Virus record (IMG/VR): IMGVR_UViG_2565956719_000013
DNA: 41,123 bases
From: a virus
Lineage: Duplodnaviria; Heunggongvirae; Uroviricota; Caudoviricetes
Strand: one strand, 5' to 3'
Below are positions 6,620 through 35,688 of this stretch, piece by piece (position 1 is the first letter of the stretch; the number at the start of each line of letters is the position of its first letter). A model generated the notes under the pieces. The model had not been told where the DNA came from and made no database searches. It saw nothing but the letters and a program-made list of their open reading frames with translations. Both the position numbers and the translations under genes were made by a program.

Positions 6620-6634
6620 TTACCTTTCAGGTAA
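6620..6634. promoter_or_regulatory. operator-like dyad TTACC-N5-GGTAA
   Basis: ATTACCtttcaGGTAAT, perfect dyad between tailspike start (6515) and SOS-box gene. Confidence 0.55.
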
Positions 6635-6671
6635 TTTGCAAAACGTGCTGGATAGCAAACAAATTATTTGC

Positions 6672-6691
6672 TACTGTATAAATATACAGTT
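6672..6691 (+). promoter_or_regulatory. LexA (SOS) box
   Basis: TACTGTATAAATATACAGTT; CTGT-N8-ACAG core at 6674-6689, ~20 bp upstream of ATG 6711. Confidence 0.7.
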
Positions 6692-6710
6692 ATTGCATGG
6701 AGAAGATAAG

Positions 6711-6968
6711 ATGCAGCAGTATCACTATCCACTGGAAGACGGATTTACCGAAAGGATTCACACGCCGGGAGGCGTCAGGTCACTGGTGGAGGGATCGCAC
6801 TTGATGAAATTACTCCGGGATCTCGATAAGGATGGATTTAATGTCGATGGCCCACTTGCCGAACTGACTGCACTGATTAACTACGTCACCAGCTCACAGA
6901 TGTCTATGCAGGATCTGCAAACACATCTCGACTATTGTGCCGAACAATTACGAAAACAAACCAGATAA
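6711..6968 (+). CDS. SOS-regulated small protein, paralog of antirepressor C-terminal domain (candidate antirepressor)
   Basis: GGAGAAG RBS; 85 aa; ~35-40% identical by eye to C-terminal ~80 aa of the 7284..7994 product (shared GV, LM-LL, DG, AELT, QTH positions). Confidence 0.6.
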   Translation: MQQYHYPLEDGFTERIHTPGGVRSLVEGSHLMKLLRDLDKDGFNVDGPLAELTALINYVTSSQMSMQDLQTHLDYCAEQLRKQTR

Positions 6969-6999
6969 GATTTGAAATTACCAATAGGAGTGCTTATAT

Positions 7000-7014
7000 T
7001 TACCTTTGCGGTAA
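7000..7014. promoter_or_regulatory. operator-like dyad TTACC-N5-GGTAA
   Basis: TTTACCtttgcGGTAAA, perfect dyad upstream of antirepressor leader. Confidence 0.55.
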
Positions 7015-7104
7015 ATTTACATCGCACTCCTCTTGTGCCATAGTAATCGGGCACTGGCAAAATCCAGTGCCGGGATTGGCGTCCCGGGTTACTAAGTGGC
7101 GCAT

Positions 7105-7127
7105 ACCACGCCAGACGTGGTTTTTTT
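7105..7127 (+). terminator. intrinsic terminator/attenuator in antirepressor leader
   Basis: stem ACCACG (7105-7110) / CGTGGT (7116-7121), loop CCAGA, T7 tract to 7127. Confidence 0.55.
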
Positions 7128-7283
7128 ATGCGTTAAGCACAGCTATATCCGAATTATGGTGGGCTGGGCAGGGGTCCGAAAGGACGCCGGTACCACTTAG
7201 GCCGGTACGCCAACCTTGTCCAGTTCACCACCAGTAATTGGCGTTGCGGTGGTGATTAAAATCACTAAGTGGAGATAACCACC

Positions 7284-7994
7284 ATGGCTAATGCTCAAAC
7301 TGCCATCTTCAAATTTGAATCTGTTAACCCTATCCGTTCCATCATTATCGATGGCCAACCATGGTTTGTAGCCCAAGACGTTTGTAGTGCGCTGCGTATC
7401 CAAAACGTCACCCAAGCACTTGAAAAACTGGATGATGATGAAAGGTCTATGTTCAACATAGGGCATGAACATCGTGCAATTTTTGACAGCCGAGTAAAAG
7501 AGATCAACATTATCTCCGAGTCAGGCCTCTACACACTGATCCTCCGCTGCCGCGACGCAGTGACACCAGGCACTATCCCCTACCGCTTTCGTAAATGGGT
7601 TACAGGTGAGGTTCTTCCTCAGATCCGCCGCACCGGAAGTTACATTAAAAACTCGCTCCCGCAGGAAGAACGCATAAAGATGGTTGCCGACCAGGTAGCC
7701 AACGCCACGGCGTCAGCAGTAATGCAGGCGATGAAGATAGAGAACAAAACCTACAGTGCCCCACTGAAGCCCGGCTACCGTAGCCTGATTCATTCGCCGT
7801 CTGGTGTTCTCGGCCTGACGGAGAACTCACTGCTGATGAATCTGCTGAACCAGTTACAGGACGACGGGCACGACGTATCGGGCGCGGCGGCGGAGCTGAC
7901 CACCATGTTCTGCTACATCGTCGGTGTGAGCAAATGCCTGCGTGATATCCAGACCCACGCGGAGTACATCAACGACAAGGCAGGGTTCTTCTGA
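7284..7994 (+). CDS. antirepressor with N-terminal Bro-N domain
   Basis: ATG 7284 with AAGTGGAG RBS; N-terminus FKFESVNPIRSIIIDGQPWFVAQDVCSAL matches Bro-N pattern; C-terminal domain paralogous to 6711..6968 product. Confidence 0.7.
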   Translation: MANAQTAIFKFESVNPIRSIIIDGQPWFVAQDVCSALRIQNVTQALEKLDDDERSMFNIGHEHRAIFDSRVKEINIISESGLYTLILRCRDAVTPGTIPYRFRKWVTGEVLPQIRRTGSYIKNSLPQEERIKMVADQVANATASAVMQAMKIENKTYSAPLKPGYRSLIHSPSGVLGLTENSLLMNLLNQLQDDGHDVSGAAAELTTMFCYIVGVSKCLRDIQTHAEYINDKAGFF

Positions 7995-8065: not shown

Positions 8066-8080
8066 TTACCTCAAGGGTAA
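8066..8080. promoter_or_regulatory. operator-like dyad TTACC-N5-GGTAA
   Basis: ATTACCtcaagGGTAAG, perfect dyad ~60 bp upstream of ATG 8140. Confidence 0.55.
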
Positions 8081-8139: not shown

Positions 8140-8772
8140 ATGAGAACAAATACAACAAGAAAAGCGATGCCATACATTATCCCAGAAGCAGATTTCGATA
8201 GAAAACTGAACATGTCTGAGAAGAACACTAGTCACACCGAAAGCTACTTAGCGAAAGGTGTGGTTGATTTCGTTCTTCCGGGATTCACAACACCTTATGG
8301 TTATCGCCTTGTAAAATCTTGTAATGGCGATCATTACAGAATGATTACTACCAGCGATACTCCAGAAACGGTGTATGCGGTTAAGTTAATCTTTCGGGAA
8401 GATATCGTCGAAGCCAAAAGAACATGTACGCAGATCATGGTATGGCGTACGCCTAATGTTATTCATGACCGTGCTGTTCATGGTTTGCCTCAGATTTTTT
8501 TTCAGTTCTTCCTAGAGCAATATGCGATCGTTGTATCTGATGAGCAACAAACAATCGATGGGAGAAGATTCTGGGAAAGAATGATTTCTTGGGCTATAAA
8601 CACCCCGGGATATAATGTATACGTTTCAGATGGCTCTGAAGAAGATAGACCTCTTAGCTTCATGACATCATGGGATGATTTCTATAGCCAGTGGGCTGAT
8701 TTCTGTTGGGGCAGTGATAAAGATGTGCATACCCACAGACTACTGGTTATAAGCAAAGATAAACTGCATTAA
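8140..8772 (+). CDS. hypothetical protein, 210 aa, orphan accessory gene
   Basis: GGGAGGA RBS; own upstream dyad and downstream terminator; no motif recognised. Confidence 0.65.
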   Translation: MRTNTTRKAMPYIIPEADFDRKLNMSEKNTSHTESYLAKGVVDFVLPGFTTPYGYRLVKSCNGDHYRMITTSDTPETVYAVKLIFREDIVEAKRTCTQIMVWRTPNVIHDRAVHGLPQIFFQFFLEQYAIVVSDEQQTIDGRRFWERMISWAINTPGYNVYVSDGSEEDRPLSFMTSWDDFYSQWADFCWGSDKDVHTHRLLVISKDKLH

Positions 8773-25624: not shown

Positions 25625-25639
25625 TTACCTTTCAGGTAA
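25625..25639. promoter_or_regulatory. operator-like dyad TTACC-N5-GGTAA
   Basis: ATTACCtttcaGGTAAG, ~90 bp upstream of the portal-operon first ORF. Confidence 0.55.
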
Positions 25640-25961: not shown

Positions 25962-26038
25962 GTGGCATTAGCTCAGTCGGACAGAGCAACCGCCTTCTAA
26001 GCGGTTGGTCGCAGGTTCGAATCCTGCATGCCACGCCA
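25962..26038 (+). tRNA. tRNA-Arg (anticodon UCU)
   Basis: 77 nt; acceptor stem GTGGCAT/ATGCCAC, anticodon stem ACCGC/GCGGT with loop CTTCTAA, T-arm GCAGG-TTCGAAT-CCTGC, discriminator G, CCA encoded. Confidence 0.85.
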
Positions 26039-28179: not shown

Positions 28180-28775
28180 TGATTGCCATCCTGACGTTCT
28201 TTCAGTCTCTTCCTGGCTGCCGCTATGCGATCAGCAATTGTCACATTCACATTAACATCCAGGCGTTCTTTGAATGCGTTGACGTCGACGTGCTTACCAA
28301 TCAGTTCGAGGTTCTTCACCTTGTCAGGCCATTTAATTTTTTTGAGGATGCCAACCAGCTCTTTCTCGTCTCCACGGCCTTCGAACATGTCGGCCAGTTC
28401 GAAACCTGTCAGGTACTGCCGCCAGACCTTAGGCCATTCCGAGACCGGCTTGATGCTCATATCGTCGTTGAGAATGTCAATCACGTCCATCTGGTCGATC
28501 TCCACCAGGCGCATGAGAACGTAATCAGCACTGACGCGCATTCGTTTGTTGCGCTCCTCCATCAACTCGGCAATCCGTTTTTGAATGCGTTCATCGCGCA
28601 TCATGACACTGGCTTTAACTGCCGCTGTATTTGGGGAGAATCCTGCGTTAATCGCTGCCTGAGTCTGGTTTTCAGGCGTTTTGATGTATGACTGGCAATA
28701 AGCCTCCTGCATTGCTGTTAGTGGCTTAAATTGCGTTGATTTGCGTTTATAGGTTTTAGGTTCAGCAGGCATCAT
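28176..28775 (-). CDS. terminase small subunit
   Basis: start moved to ATGATG 28775-28770 (MMPAEPK...); immediately upstream of large terminase. Confidence 0.65.
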   Translation of the reverse strand: MMPAEPKTYKRKSTQFKPLTAMQEAYCQSYIKTPENQTQAAINAGFSPNTAAVKASVMMRDERIQKRIAELMEERNKRMRVSADYVLMRLVEIDQMDVIDILNDDMSIKPVSEWPKVWRQYLTGFELADMFEGRGDEKELVGILKKIKWPDKVKNLELIGKHVDVNAFKERLDVNVNVTIADRIAAARKRLKERQDGNQ

Positions 28776-28782
28776 AACCACC

Positions 28783-28814
28783 GTGGTAATAGTTACCGTT
28801 GTGGTAATAGTACC
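28783..28814. repeat. two direct copies of GTGGTAATAGT(T)ACC upstream of terS
   Basis: 28783-28797 and 28801-28814; each is a GGTAA-N3/4-TACC inverted arrangement. Confidence 0.8.
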
Positions 28815-28818
28815 ATGC

Positions 28819-28844
28819 AAAATAAAGCCGCCATAGTTGGCGGC
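28819..28844 (-). terminator. intrinsic terminator immediately upstream of terS
   Basis: GCCGCC (28827-28832) / GGCGGC (28839-28844), loop ATAGTT; minus-strand T-tract UUUAUUUU (28826-28819). Confidence 0.6.
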
Positions 28845-28885
28845 AGTATTCAAAACCCATCAAATTCATCATGCATAATCTACTC

Positions 28886-28897
28886 GTGACATGTCAC
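28886..28897. repeat. 12-bp palindrome GTGACATGTCAC (copy 1)
   Basis: perfect palindrome overlapping TGA stop (28894-28896) of the Cys-rich gene, 41 bp before terminator. Confidence 0.9.
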
Positions 28898-29232
28898 ACT
28901 ATTAATTTCGTTTCATGCCAGCCTTTAGTCACCCAGCATTGCGAGTCACCATTACACGGGCATGAATTAACGGGAACTCTCTCGCCGCACTTACCGCAAA
29001 GTTTTCTGCTGATCGATTTTATACGCCCGCGCACACGTGCATCATCCTGGCGGATCAGCAGCGCGATGTACTCGGCCATTTCATAGGGATCGCGACCAGG
29101 GCGCCGGGCGGCGCAGTTCCGCTCAAGCATTTCAATTTCCTGAGCATCAAGCACAATCTCCAGCTTACGCACACCAGATGCAGCTTGTCTGGCTCTCTGA
29201 GCGGCTTTGCGCTCTGCTGCTGATTTAGCCAT
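28894..29232 (-). CDS. basic protein with C-terminal Cys cluster (zinc-finger-like); candidate regulator
   Basis: ATG 29232 (ORF-track start 29235 is TTG); Arg/Ala-rich N-terminus, CGKCGERVPVNSCPCNGDSQC; last gene before terS. Confidence 0.5.
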   Translation of the reverse strand: MAKSAAERKAAQRARQAASGVRKLEIVLDAQEIEMLERNCAARRPGRDPYEMAEYIALLIRQDDARVRGRIKSISRKLCGKCGERVPVNSCPCNGDSQCWVTKGWHETKLIV

Positions 29233-32506: not shown

Positions 32507-32521
32507 TTACCTCTTAGGTAA
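32507..32521. promoter_or_regulatory. operator-like dyad TTACC-N5-GGTAA overlapping RBS
   Basis: TTTACCtcttaGGTAAT, 4 nt upstream of ATG 32503. Confidence 0.5.
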
Positions 32522-32568
32522 TTAAAAACCACATAAGACACGAAATCAATAGATTTTAGAACATTTTA

Positions 32569-32583
32569 TTACCTAACAGGTAA
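32569..32583. promoter_or_regulatory. operator-like dyad TTACC-N5-GGTAA
   Basis: ATTACCtaacaGGTAAT between P-like gene stop and DUF1064 gene. Confidence 0.55.
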
Positions 32584-34233: not shown

Positions 34234-34434
34234 TCAGCTTGAATGTTGTGGGGAGGAATTAATCATGATCTGCTTAATCTCTGCCCTGATGCGACGGTTT
34301 GATTCCATGGTGCACTCAACACAGTGTCCGTTGTAAACCCAGCGTTCACTGTCATGTCCGTGCTTACATGGTTTTCCGGTGTAGTAGCGTTTAAGTCCGC
34401 GCTTTGCGGCATCAATACGTGTAATGATTTCCAT
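34234..34434 (-). CDS. small Cys-rich (zinc-ribbon-like) protein
   Basis: ATG 34434; 66 aa with CKHGH...CVEC; first gene after cro-like terminator. Confidence 0.4.
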   Translation of the reverse strand: MEIITRIDAAKRGLKRYYTGKPCKHGHDSERWVYNGHCVECTMESNRRIRAEIKQIMINSSPQHSS

Positions 34435-34514
34435 GGTAAGCCCTGTTATTAGTATTGGGATTACGGTCATTTTGTGCTGACACAAAAAAAAGATCAACCA
34501 GATTTGGTTATTTA

Positions 34515-34529
34515 TTACCTTTGAGGTAC
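34515..34529. promoter_or_regulatory. operator-like dyad, imperfect (TTACC-N5-GGTAC)
   Basis: ATTACCtttgaGGTACG just downstream of cro-like terminator. Confidence 0.4.
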
Positions 34530-34537
34530 GAATAGAT

Positions 34538-34562
34538 ATGAAAAGACCGCCGGGTGGCGGTC
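34538..34562 (-). terminator. intrinsic terminator after cro-like gene
   Basis: GACCGCC (34545-34551) / GGCGGTC (34556-34562), loop GGGT; minus-strand UUUUCAU. Confidence 0.55.
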
Positions 34563-34584
34563 TACAGAGGGTTGTAGCTGGATA

Positions 34585-34815
34585 TCATGAGTAGAAGAAG
34601 TATGCCAGTTCTGCTTTTGAGCGCAGCCATTGTCTTGTTTTACAGGCTTTAAAAAGCCCATTCATCAATACTTTACCTGGCATTTTGCGCTTACCTGTTA
34701 AGTGAGTCTGGATATAGTGACTCGTCGTTCCGGCTTCCTGTGCGAAGGCTTCACGCTCATCCGGAGTAAGTGCAAGCCAGTGCTTTTTGAAATCGAAATG
34801 TCCGTTATCGCTCAT
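34585..34815 (-). CDS. Cro-like small DNA-binding regulator
   Basis: 76 aa; HTH-like EREAFAQEAGTTSHYIQTHL; divergent from CI-like gene; transcribed toward replication genes. Confidence 0.55.
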   Translation of the reverse strand: MSDNGHFDFKKHWLALTPDEREAFAQEAGTTSHYIQTHLTGKRKMPGKVLMNGLFKACKTRQWLRSKAELAYFFYS

Positions 34816-34882
34816 AGCTATTGCCTGATATTTATTTCAGATAATAAATATTCACCCATAAGGTAACAAAAATCAAGGATAG

Positions 34883-34897
34883 TTACCTATGAGGTGC
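34883..34897. promoter_or_regulatory. operator-like dyad, imperfect (TTACC-N5-GGTGC), in switch region
   Basis: AGTTACCtatgaGGTGC; 16 bp centre-to-centre from the next dyad. Confidence 0.45.
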
Positions 34898-34898
34898 A

Positions 34899-34913
34899 TT
34901 TACCTGTTGGGTA
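34899..34913. promoter_or_regulatory. operator-like dyad TTACC-N5-GGTAA in switch region
   Basis: TTTACCtgttgGGTAAT between cro-like and CI-like genes. Confidence 0.6.
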
Positions 34914-34969
34914 ATATTGCTTTAAATTGAATCATCTACTGATTCATATATGAGGCGATTTTCCAGAAA

Positions 34970-35554
34970 ATGAAAAGTATCCAGGACGTCCGCAGGCAAA
35001 ATCTCAACGACTTGATCGACCGTGAATTCAATGGTGTTCAGACGCGGATGGCAGAAAAACTTGGAACTCAGGCAAATCTGGTAAACCGCTGGGCTCTTGG
35101 CAAGAAGGTTATCGGCGACCAGGTTGCGCGAAAAATTGAAGCTGCCGCCAATAAACCCCGTAACTGGCTTGATATTGATCGCTCGCTTTCTCAGGAGGGT
35201 TTTCAGCCTGTCGGCCCGAGCGATATAGGTCAGCTGGCGGCTCACAACCTGGAACGCTGGATGAGCGAAAGCCGCGACCTTTCAACGCAGGGAAAACTAC
35301 ACCGCGCATCCGGCGTCGCCCAGGTGACAATCAGCCGCCTGTTAAACAATGAGGTCAGCGTTTCCATTTCCACCCTGGAGAATGTTGCATCCGCATTCGG
35401 GCGTCACGGCTATGAACTACTGATTCACCCGCACGACCCTGCGACTATCAACTATGACCGCTCACGCTACGCATTGTTACCCGAAACCGAGAAAGCAAAG
35501 ATCGAAAGTTACATTGAATTTGTCATCAACCAGAACGAAAAAAACAAACAATAA
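34970..35554 (+). CDS. CI-like repressor with two HTH domains, no S24 peptidase domain
   Basis: 194 aa; HTH-like segments QTRMAEKLGTQANLVNRW and SGVAQVTISRLLNNEVSVSISTLENVASAF; no Ser-Lys protease region; poor RBS; 7-codon upstream mini-ORF ends in ATGA at the start. Confidence 0.65.
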   Translation: MKSIQDVRRQNLNDLIDREFNGVQTRMAEKLGTQANLVNRWALGKKVIGDQVARKIEAAANKPRNWLDIDRSLSQEGFQPVGPSDIGQLAAHNLERWMSESRDLSTQGKLHRASGVAQVTISRLLNNEVSVSISTLENVASAFGRHGYELLIHPHDPATINYDRSRYALLPETEKAKIESYIEFVINQNEKNKQ

Positions 35555-35574: not shown

Positions 35575-35598
35575 AAGCCGCCTTCTGGCGGCTTTTTT
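35575..35598 (+). terminator. intrinsic terminator after CI-like gene
   Basis: GCCGCC-TTCT-GGCGGC hairpin followed by T6. Confidence 0.7.
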
Positions 35599-35611: not shown

Positions 35612-35626
35612 TTACCTAATGGGTAA
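35612..35626. promoter_or_regulatory. operator-like dyad TTACC-N5-GGTAA
   Basis: ATTACCtaatgGGTAAT downstream of CI-like terminator. Confidence 0.55.
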
Positions 35627-35673
35627 TTTTTTTAACTCATATCTATTGACATCAAACCAAATACGCATAATTA

Positions 35674-35688
35674 TTACCTCAACGGTAA
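35674..35688. promoter_or_regulatory. operator-like dyad TTACC-N5-GGTAA at early rightward promoter
   Basis: ATTACCtcaacGGTAAC; TTGACA at 35646-35651 upstream; ~20 bp before ATG 35708. Confidence 0.55.

Follow-up and report, generated by a model that had tools for sequence, protein, structure and literature searches.

Repressor gene and its neighbours

The window, the whole stretch of 41,123 nucleotides analysed here, contains on its plus strand a rep gene (34970-35554) encoding a 194-aa prophage repressor of the SPC32H type, as assigned from matches in PDB (5D50_A), Pfam and phrog. The protein is PhiV10p40, matches the phrog_8/phrog_12107 repressor families, and aligns over aa 1-190 with residues 2-197 of the SPC32H Rep structure 5D50_A (E 4e-42) and also with 5D4Z, which covers SPC32H Rep 92-198 (E 4e-20). 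The start at 34970 is confirmed, since the MKSI N-terminus is invariant across 28 Rep homologues and the alignment to 5D50_A begins at residue 1. Pfam HTH_3 is found at aa 106-147 and an N-terminal HTH is recovered by weaker matches, so that the tandem-HTH repressor of the original prediction is upheld as two HTH-type domains by sequence. In SPC32H Rep, an HTH DNA-binding domain at the N-terminus is followed by a dimerisation domain and then by a C-terminal tail responsible for tetramerisation and Ant binding (PMC9986798), and the second HTH of the window protein, its HTH_3-like middle region, is predicted to correspond to the dimerisation domain.

The Pfam search of Rep returned HTH families only, and an S24 peptidase domain is absent. 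SPC32H Rep binds DNA as a tetramer that is disassembled by tetrameric Ant (PMC9638917; PMC9986798); it is not cleavable, and the antirepressor that inactivates it is under LexA control. A lambda-type CI with RecA-stimulated self-cleavage was rejected on the missing peptidase domain and the different C-terminal fold of the homologue. The earlier designation of the gene as CI-like therefore gives way to an SPC32H-type Rep lacking the S24 domain, with a LexA-controlled antirepressor encoded in the same window.

Divergent from rep, in the position of cro, lies a minus-strand gene for a 76-aa protein (34585-34815), equivalent to PhiV10p41 and epsilon15 gp39, which matches the transcriptional repressor family phrog_35 (E 5.6e-13) and has no match in Pfam or PDB searches. 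Terminator scanning places an intrinsic terminator after each of the two genes, at 34544-34563 on the minus strand for the cro-like gene and at 35575-35594 on the plus strand for rep, and both are annotated in phiV10. An Rfam search of the rep region returned no RNA element, with sub-threshold matches on the terminator alone.

By DNA comparison the window is 97.7% identical to phiV10 across the immunity region, which identifies it as a phiV10-like temperate podovirus of the genus Uetakevirus and an E. coli prophage. The corresponding regions of phiV10 (DQ126339, PhiV10p40) and vB_EcoP_ZX5 (ORF21) are 97.7-98.5% identical to the window and show no material difference from it; in the 100 nt upstream of rep, phiV10 and the window differ by one base, which lies inside the spacer of operator O2. 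Overexpression of ZX5 ORF21, which is 98% identical, lowered endolysin and holin transcripts by 99.97-99.99% (PMC9782041). Operators, promoter and translation start context are not mapped in either the phiV10 record or the ZX5 paper (PMC9782041). A first scan of viral contigs gave 80 identical loci and a single-protein scan of genome contigs gave two, and the lineage diversity used below was obtained by re-querying with diverged homologues and by exact-protein look-ups.

Operators and promoters between rep and the cro-like gene

The sequences establish the predicted Rep operators as dyads of 15-17 bp with the form (A)TTACC-N5-GGTAA(T), a motif also carried by the features labelled 'protein_bind repressor' in the epsilon15 GenBank record. 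Three such sites separate rep from the cro-like gene: O1 (34852-34866, TCACC-CATAA-GGTAA, one mismatch), O2 (34883-34897, TTACC-TATGA-GGTGC, two mismatches, a conserved dyad) and O3 (34900-34914, TTACC-TGTTG-GGTAA, perfect), with centres about 111, 80 and 63 nt 5' of the rep ATG. The original prediction had recognised dyads at 34883 and 34899 together with a GGTAA half-site at 34862. Both dyads stand, although their spacing is 17 bp centre to centre rather than 16 bp, the two abutting as 17-mers (34882-34898 and 34899-34915), and the half-site is present as the right half of the full dyad at 34852-34866.

Operator positions are constant in about 14 lineages whose Rep proteins are 41-100% identical, apart from a shift of 8-9 nt in a Serratia lineage. 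The O1 centre lies at -108 to -113 (Serratia -102), the O2 centre at -78 to -82 (Serratia -72) and the O3 centre at -61 to -65 (Serratia -55), and O3 is perfect in every lineage. Within the phiV10 lineage, operator polymorphism is confined to the N5 spacers: O1 varies in its spacer alone, and the spacer of O2 is hypervariable while its half-sites are fixed.

A predicted leftward early (lytic) promoter for the cro-like operon (34841-34876, minus strand) was found by promoter scan, with a -35 of TTGATT (34876-34871), a 17-bp spacer and a -10 of GAATAT (34853-34848); the scan also offers the alternative TTGTTA (34869)-17-TATTAT (34841). The element AAATCAA, which reads TTGATTT on the complementary strand, does not vary among 12 lineages. 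For rep itself, a promoter P_rep can be proposed on the plus strand at 34899-34928, with a -35 of TTTACC (34899-34904), a spacer of 17-18 bp and a -10 of TTAAAT or TAAATT (34922-34928). It is weak, matching 8 of 12 consensus positions and falling under the threshold of the promoter scan, and its placement is suggested by this match and by conservation: every lineage has an A/T-rich -10-like box at a constant spacing from O3, which reads GATAAT in one of them (L004) and TATTAAAT in Serratia. A second -10 candidate for rep, TAATAT (34912-34917), is located within O3.

The stretch from the P_rep -10 to the rep start contains a perfect dyad, TGAATCA-N5-TGATTCA (34928-34946), which is conserved in E. 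coli-type lineages and replaced by a degenerate Rep-like site in Salmonella-type lineages, and at the equivalent place the epsilon15 record annotates an IHF site. The dyad might bind the Cro-like protein or IHF, or form a hairpin at the RNA 5' end; as this is the sole exact copy in the window, no regulon is inferable from it.

In the proposed mechanism, O1 would overlie the -10 and spacer of the promoter that reads leftward into the cro-like/replication operon and O3 would cover the -35 and spacer of the weak rightward P_rep. Rep would therefore shut off the lytic promoter and hold down its own production. The likeness to the lambda OR1-3 arrangement that had been suggested is retained in all lineages as a topology of three operators between divergent genes and is not retained in the affinity order, which looks unlike that of lambda. 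The sole perfect site among the three is the repressor-proximal O3 in every lineage of the comparison, so that a perfect site sits on P_rep and imperfect sites on the lytic promoter, the reverse of lambda. Such an order would need cooperative or looped binding to make sense.

Dispersed operators and the antirepressor

The three sites at the switch are a small part of what the sequence predicts to be a set of about 13 dispersed Rep sites. Exact TTACC-N5-GGTAA sites number 10 in the window against 0.02 expected, and the epsilon15 record annotates several homologous sites as repressor-binding, the three between rep and gp39 being unannotated. On the far side of the cro-like gene, a site with one mismatch (34515-34529) lies just 3' of that gene's terminator and 5' of a 67-aa gene. 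Downstream of rep, promoter scanning predicts a rightward early, PL-like promoter (plus strand, within 35612-35688; TTGACA at 35646, 17 bp, AATTAT at 35674) that is flanked by two perfect operators 62 bp apart (35612-35626 and 35674-35688), a pair present with a spacing of 62-63 bp in 12 of 12 lineages checked. Another pair of perfect operators 62 bp apart (32507-32583) separates the replication genes from the DUF1064 operon and is homologous to the epsilon15 sites 35907/35969. Two tandem sites 18 bp apart (28775-28807), which are homologous to sites 12 and 30 of epsilon15, lie just 5' of where terS probably starts, and the operator at 25625-25639, 5' of the gp3/portal operon, is homologous to epsilon15 site 2931, annotated 'repressor'. 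The remaining operators are at 8066-8080, 5' of a 210-aa gene (8140-8772); at 7000-7014, abutting a promoter-like TTGAAA-17-TATATT (6972-7000) and 5' of isrK/C4-like RNAs and a Bro-N/Ant-domain gene; and at 6620-6634, at the start of the induction module (6620-6968, plus strand).

This module contains ant (6711-6968, plus strand), an 85-aa homologue of SPC32H Ant (PDB 5D50_E, E 2.7e-46), and a predicted perfect LexA box, CTGTATAAATATACAG (6674-6689), about 20 nt 5' of the ant ATG. Induction would proceed through this small antirepressor, with the LexA box in its promoter. In the same scheme the two perfect sites 62 bp apart would bracket the rightward promoter of the recombination operon downstream of rep, and about eight further Rep sites would guard other promoters, those of ant, Bro-ant, terS and the portal operon among them.

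The spacing of the operators may be of functional significance. We consider it possible, though doubtful, that the occurrence of operators in helically phased pairs (31 bp between O1 and O2, and 62 bp at each of two other promoters), together with a purine motif acting as a deliberately mis-spaced Shine-Dalgarno (SD) sequence before rep, represents functional design. If true, one Rep tetramer would close each early promoter into a micro-loop and the mis-spaced motif would set a low Rep level. A resemblance of the Rep C-terminal domain to DNA-looping 'TetDloop' domains has been pointed out (PMC9986798). As far as could be checked, neither the phased pairs nor the mis-spaced motif has been described for the SPC32H/epsilon15-type family.

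Translation start of rep

The absence of an SD sequence at normal spacing, part of the original prediction, is real and family-wide. In phiV10, whose record is 97.7% identical, anti-SD pairing over positions -17 to -4 of rep amounts to -2.4 kcal/mol, the sixth weakest among 55 genes with a median of about -6.5 kcal/mol, and a far zone containing GAGG at -18 to -15 pairs at -5.6 kcal/mol. In the window this GAGG (34952-34955, plus strand, -18 to -15 from the rep AUG) is the sole SD-like element and is mis-spaced. Across the lineages the purine motif ends 14-16 nt 5' of the rep ATG in most cases, all 12 aligned lineages have G at -16, and an SD at -12 to -5 is found in no lineage compared, save Serratia. 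The leader of the rep mRNA would be about 35 nt long, rich in A/U and without structure, and folding of the leader gave z values from -1.8 to +1.3 against shuffled sequences, not significantly structured. Initiation would thus be at AUG 34970 without a correctly spaced SD, the nearest GAGG being 14 nt away, and the likely outcome is weak initiation with little SD dependence, by which Rep would be kept low. In T4 gene 38, a hairpin brings a distal SD next to the AUG. An analogous ATTTTC/GAAAAT hairpin moving GAGG beside the rep AUG was considered and rejected, as the A/T palindromes are not in all lineages and the folds are no stabler than those of shuffled sequences.

The same GAGG could alternatively be a DNA or RNA element tied to the promoter rather than a translation signal. 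It might, for example, form a binding site together with the TGAATCA dyad or serve in the processing or stability of the RNA. Between the window and Serratia lineages, the two measured, the motif keeps roughly one spacing from the O3 centre (47-48 nt) though its spacing to the AUG varies by 8-9 nt, and it stands directly 3' of the conserved dyad at 34928-34946. In the Serratia lineage, however, the motif occupies -8 to -6, the normal SD position, as expected for a true SD, and the element has neither an Rfam match nor significant structure, which leaves a promoter-tied role unlikely.

Leaderless expression was one of the two possibilities raised originally, and a leaderless or near-leaderless rep transcript would not need the missing SD. 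The cI genes of lambda and 434 are expressed in this way, that of lambda from PRM, and the rep upstream region offers some resemblance in that -14 to -7 is A/T-rich in all lineages and contains weak -10-like hexamers such as GATTTT (3/6 match). Yet neither ATG 34970 nor ATG 34950 has, at the appropriate spacing, a conserved hexamer with a matching -35 or an extended -10, and the promoter scan is empty before both. The operators, which would be expected over an autoregulated promoter, end 56 nt 5' of the ATG in most lineages, the conserved -10-like box follows O3, and the conserved promoter-like elements instead overlap O3, 40-70 nt 5' of the rep ATG. A -10 within GATTCA/TTCATAT giving a short leader was also rejected, as it is not conserved and its key positions are missing. 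We therefore regard a leaderless rep transcript as very improbable.

A seven-codon ORF upstream of rep (34950-34973, plus strand; MRRFSRK*, ATG AGG CGA TTT TCC AGA AAA TGA) is present as originally described, with its TGA overlapping the rep ATG in ATGA at 34970-34973. Translational coupling, in which ribosomes would translate MRRFSRK, stop at the UGA within AUGA and reinitiate on rep, would offset the missing SD, and both the overlap and the missing SD are real; a three-codon uORF in the Serratia lineage, ATGGAAAAATGA, ends with the same ATGA overlap and might reflect a weak recurrent tendency. The upstream ATG is nevertheless not conserved. It is missing from the 65, 64, 60, 59, 58, 43 and 41% lineages and three further ones. 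In the 78% lineage it stands in frame, in epsilon15-type phages it occupies a third frame, and five of 90 haplotypes in the window's own lineage have ACG at this place, on at least three backgrounds. The overlap is automatic because every Rep homologue starts ATGAAA (invariant Met-Lys), and shuffled 36-nt leaders contain a uORF ending in ATGA in 12% of cases and any ATG in 52%. Coupling would moreover gain nothing, since the mini-ORF has no SD of its own: the 20 nt 5' of ATG 34950 (aatcatctactgattcatat) are without an SD-like run. By these comparisons the mini-ORF is incidental, no more than chance would give, and would be a by-product of a purine motif preceded by AT in the window lineage and a gene that starts ATGA-AA. 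A functional mini-ORF is very improbable, and a tempting yet unsupported uORF-coupling story is thereby removed.

Relation to known immunity systems

The closest characterised counterpart is the Rep/Ant/LexA system of SPC32H, a Salmonella phage of the same podovirus genus and gene order, which resembles the window in its full-length Rep, its Ant, the LexA box before ant and the lack of a peptidase domain. It differs from the window in that the window host is E. coli and the Rep proteins have diverged (E 4e-42). The SPC32H antirepression system was reportedly described by Kim & Ryu in 2013 and Kim et al. in 2016, and the epsilon15 gp38 repressor with predicted operators is said to have been presented by Kropinski et al. 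in 2007. In epsilon15 (AY150271), the operator motif ATTACC-N5-GGTAAT is identical to that of the window, homologous sites occur in the terS, gp3 operon, ant/tailspike, PL-like and replication/RuvC regions, and three sites lie between rep and gp39 at the same distances. Its Rep is just 42% identical to that of the window, the imperfect half of its O1 is on the opposite side, its O2 is perfect, and its upstream ATG is in a different frame.

The window shares with lambda a divergent pair of genes, repressor and cro-like, separated by three dyad operators, of which one is in the lytic promoter and another on the repressor promoter, and a second operator cluster that controls the other early operon. 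Unlike lambda, which relies on an S24 peptidase and RecA cleavage, the window Rep belongs to a family of tetramers with another C-terminal fold, and induction would be through an antirepressor; the best operator is on the repressor side, the roughly 13 operators are dispersed rather than arranged in two clusters, and a leader of about 35 nt is likely in place of a leaderless mRNA. Many repressor sites scattered at individual promoters are also found with P1 C1 and mycobacteriophage L5 gp71, and SOS input via an antirepressor rather than cleavage is shared with the LexA-controlled antirepressors of Gifsy/Fels-2 (PMC3121763). The proteins of these dispersed-operator and antirepressor systems are unrelated to those of the window, and the window operators are symmetric dyads, not asymmetric sites.

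Taken as a whole, the rep region is best explained as the main immunity switch of a temperate podovirus resembling phiV10 and epsilon15, a reading to which we assign a probability of about 80%; the immunity switch first proposed for this region is borne out, with an SPC32H-type Rep, operators and divergent genes. It is an ordinary, previously characterised type of repressor/antirepressor immunity region, as the mechanism of the SPC32H/epsilon15/phiV10 module is structurally solved and the repressor has been tested in the 98%-identical phage, and the new detail is modest, with little value beyond correct annotation. The analysis places the prophage among SOS-inducible, antirepressor-dependent prophages and provides a comparative operator and promoter map for phiV10-type phages of E. 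coli O157 and relatives. The constancy of the operator half-site across Rep proteins that are just 41% identical suggests broad cross-recognition within the genus, which could bear on superinfection immunity between Uetakevirus prophages.

Identity of the immunity module

The immunity switch read from the sequence alone is borne out, and it is an already known and correctly read system, the Rep-Ant module of the SPC32H/epsilon15/phiV10 type. The 2 kb surrounding the region are 97.7% identical to Escherichia phage phiV10, 96-99% identical to about 15 other E. coli podoviruses, including vB_EcoP_ZX5, PAS61, phiv142-3, TL-2011b and O157 typing phages 9 and 10, and about 78% identical to Enterobacter phage Tyrion. 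PhiV10 and its relatives are epsilon15-like temperate podoviruses of the genus Uetakevirus. The repressor gene rep (34970-35554) corresponds to PhiV10p40, annotated as 'putative transcriptional repressor, two helix-turn-helix motifs', and the divergent 76-aa cro-like ORF (34815-34585) to PhiV10p41 and epsilon15 gp39.

The label 'CI-like' does not apply to Rep in the lambda sense. The Rep of Salmonella phage SPC32H is matched along the whole length of the protein (PDB 5D50_A, E 4e-42), the C-terminal part matches the construct Rep(92-198) (5D4Z, E 4e-20), and a Pfam search of the protein returned HTH families only (HTH_3 at aa 106-147 and a weak YdaS-type HTH at aa 21-61), with no S24 peptidase. 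Secondary summaries (PMC9638917, PMC9986798) describe SPC32H Rep as binding DNA through its N-terminal domain, dimerising through a middle domain and using its C-terminal domain for both tetramerisation and Ant binding, as forming a tetramer on DNA whose paired DNA-binding domains are contributed by different dimers, and as being disrupted by tetrameric Ant. The predicted tandem HTH is present by sequence, but by homology the second module is the dimerisation domain rather than a second DNA reader.

The window also contains the remainder of the Rep circuit: the ORF at 6711-6968 matches SPC32H Ant (5D50_E, E 2.7e-46), with a perfect LexA box (CTGTATAAATATACAG, 6674-6689) and a good Shine-Dalgarno (SD) sequence upstream. 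Overexpression of the 98% identical repressor of ZX5 lowers endolysin and holin transcripts by 99.97-99.99% and abolishes free phage (PMC9782041). The 'ORF4 anti-repressor' tested in ZX5 is of the Bro-N type and not the small LexA-controlled Ant. A 241-aa protein at 7269-7994 has a Bro-N/antirepressor part at its N-terminus and a copy of the small SPC32H-type Ant domain at its C-terminus (phrog_450, aa 158-239), so that the phage carries two tandem Ant-domain genes. Between small ant and the Bro-N antirepressor gene, downstream of a Rep site at 7000 and a promoter-like site, Rfam matches above gathering thresholds identify an isrK Hfq-binding RNA (7051-7127, 67.7 bits) and a C4 antisense RNA (7152-7235, 66 bits). 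This region resembles P1 immI, with its order of repressor-controlled promoter, c4 RNA and antirepressor.

Operators and their conservation

The operator part of the original prediction is well supported. Two dyads proposed between rep and the cro-like gene are present at 34883-34897 (O2, TTACC TATGA GGTGC) and 34900-34914 (O3, TTACC TGTTG GGTAA), spaced by 17 bp and not 16, and abut when taken as 17-mers; the GGTAA at 34862, proposed as a half-site, belongs, as its right arm, to a full dyad at 34852-34866 (O1, TCACC CATAA GGTAA). The 41 kb window has 10 exact TTACC-N5-GGTAA sites where 0.02 would be expected, and 38 matches are found against 11.9 expected with up to two mismatches. Further Rep sites lie at 35612 and 35674, a pair spaced by 62 bp that flanks a near-consensus promoter (TTGACA-17-AATTAT, 35646-35674); at 34515, with one mismatch, preceding a 67-aa gene; at 32507 and 32569, likewise 62 bp apart; at 28775 and 28793, directly upstream of the probable terS start; at 25625 and 8066; at 7000, adjoining a promoter-like TTGAAA-17-TATATT; and at 6620, upstream of ant. 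The epsilon15 GenBank record carries seven 'protein_bind: repressor' features, all ATTACC-N5-GGTAAT and at places homologous to the window sites, so the motif and its dispersed distribution are already on record for this phage family; three more sites in the epsilon15 rep-gp39 interval (33341, 33358, 33388) lack annotation there.

The terS start is probably mis-annotated (28690-28900, minus strand), the TTG used in phiV10 likely being too far upstream; ahead of an ATG at ~28774 come a terminator, TGgTACTAT as an extended -10-like element, and a tandem pair of Rep sites, matching the epsilon15 terS layout. The 67-aa protein (34234-34437, minus strand), encoded after the cro-like gene and a terminator, contains a Cys/His-rich motif (CKHGH...CVEC) and is matched by phrog_1081 (a family of unknown function) and, at a weak level, by families of the endonuclease VII type. 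A tRNA-Arg (anticodon TCT) lies at 25962-26038, between the packaging genes and the head-gene operon.

For comparison across lineages, 257 Rep loci were reduced to 54 distinct upstream regions and four lineages were added by exact-protein look-up; Rep identity to the window in this sample runs from 100% down to 41%, and hosts include E. coli, Citrobacter, Pseudescherichia, Raoultella, Serratia and Salmonella. In leaders of normal length, operator centres fall at -108 to -113 (O1), -78 to -82 (O2) and -61 to -65 (O3) from the rep ATG. O3 is perfect in all compared lineages with such a leader, and in each of them one arm of O1 is imperfect; the right arm of O2 departs from the motif (GGTGC/GGTTC) in E. 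coli-type lineages, and the Salmonella type has a perfect O2. Downstream of rep, a perfect site pair 62-63 bp apart surrounds TTGACA in 12 of 12 lineages checked. All intra-operator polymorphisms among 90 phiV10-lineage haplotypes fall in the N5 spacer and none in the half-sites, a pattern that lends independent support to the operator definition.

Translation and transcription of rep

The rep start codon is secure: an in-frame TGA lies at 34940 with no in-frame ATG between it and 34970, 28 homologues, some as little as 42% identical, all begin with MKSI, and Rep aligns from residue 1 with the crystallised SPC32H protein. The proposed lack of an SD at normal spacing is confirmed: computed for phiV10, which has an identical rep leader, anti-SD pairing at -17..-4 amounts to -2.4 kcal/mol against a median of about -6.5 for 55 annotated genes, placing rep sixth from the weak end, and reaches -5.6 at -26..-14 because of a GAGG at -18..-15 (34952-34955). 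A poor ribosome-binding site is supported family-wide. In most lineages a purine motif (GAGG, GAGA, AGG or GGA) ends 14-16 nt ahead of the AUG and is followed by an A/U-rich spacer, with no SD at -12..-5 in lineages so arranged; G at -16 is among the few positions invariant from O3 to the ATG in a 12-lineage alignment. The leader of the Serratia lineage (L262, upstream of rep at 1201) is short by about 8 nt, which puts its GGA at -8..-6, the normal SD position; O3 centre and motif are 47 nt apart in the window and 48 nt in this lineage, the two measured. Leader and start region show no structure in excess of shuffled sequence (z -1.8 to +1.3) and match no Rfam family. Weak SDs also precede the adjacent cro-like gene and the 67-aa gene. 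The rep leader is most simply read as having a mis-spaced SD, which together with an open A/U-rich initiation region would give constitutively weak translation of a repressor of which little is needed.

At 34871-34876 the 12-lineage alignment shows the complement of TTGATT without variation, and 17 bp separate TTGATT from GAATAT in the E. coli type or from ATAATT in the Salmonella type; TTGATT is taken as the -35 of a predicted leftward early promoter whose spacer and -10 are overlapped by O1. In all lineages an A/T-rich -10-like box (TTTAAATT, TTTTAATT, GATAAT or TATTAAAT) follows O3 at a fixed distance, and with TTTACC inside O3 as -35 would form a weak rightward promoter, P_rep, whose transcript would start near 34935 with a leader of ~35 nt. 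TAATAT at 34912-34917 is a candidate alternative -10. A perfect dyad, TGAATCA-N5-TGATTCA (spacer TCTAC, 34928-34946), has no second exact copy in the window; it separates the predicted -10 from the purine motif and falls at the predicted transcript start. It is kept in most E. coli-type lineages, the Salmonella type having a degenerate Rep-like site, TTAATCAGTTAGGTAAC, instead, and the epsilon15 record predicts an IHF site at the equivalent place. Candidate roles, depending on the true start site, are a site for the cro-like protein or IHF over the P_rep +1, or a 7-bp 5' hairpin.

Translational coupling of rep to an upstream mini-ORF had also been proposed. The seven codons exist as described (ATG AGG CGA TTT TCC AGA AAA TGA, from 34950), with the TGA overlapping the ATG at 34970, but this ATGA overlap is automatic because every homologue starts ATG AAA, and a uORF ending in the same TGA arises in 12% of shuffles of the 36-nt leader. 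The mini-ORF is restricted to the window/phiV10 lineage, where its ATG reads ACG in 5 of 90 haplotypes on at least three different backgrounds, and no SD-like sequence precedes it in the window. Elsewhere, the lineage with 78% Rep identity has an ATG at -24, in frame; epsilon15-type phages have one at -19 in the third frame, opening an 11-codon ORF that terminates within rep; the Serratia lineage has a 3-codon uORF, ATGGAAAAATGA, overlapping the rep start; and no ATG occurs in the last 40 nt of the leader in the 65, 64, 60, 59, 58, 43 and 41% lineages or in three of the four added lineages. Coupling is thus unlikely, and the mini-ORF is concluded to be incidental. Leaderless expression, the other route suggested, has a low probability, as no conserved hexamer with -10 key positions and a matching -35 or TG extension lies 5-8 nt before either ATG (34970 or 34950), a promoter scan gave none suited to it, and the last autoregulatory operator stops 56 nt short of the rep ATG.

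Regulatory logic and implications

The suggested likeness to OR1-3 holds for topology: the promoters diverge, three operators are present, and the other early operon has an operator cluster of its own. The switch logic probably differs from that of lambda: the best operator, O3, lies on the repressor's own predicted promoter, Rep is by SPC32H homology a tetramer with two DNA-binding pairs, and induction would proceed via a LexA-controlled antirepressor and not cleavage. The spacings of 31 bp (O1-O2) and 62 bp, about three and six helical turns, suggest that a single Rep tetramer may bridge two phased sites. The residual novelty lies in these phased operator pairs and the position-locked, mis-spaced SD-like motif.

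The half-site TTACC/GGTAA and its N5 spacing, examined at 34852-34914, 35612-35688 and 32507-32583 and at L002 (one of the collected Rep loci) and other loci, are kept by Reps 41-100% identical from E. coli, Citrobacter, Salmonella, Serratia and Raoultella hosts. Lambdoid phages have diversified their immunity; in contrast, the shared half-site predicts that operators would be cross-recognised across the genus.
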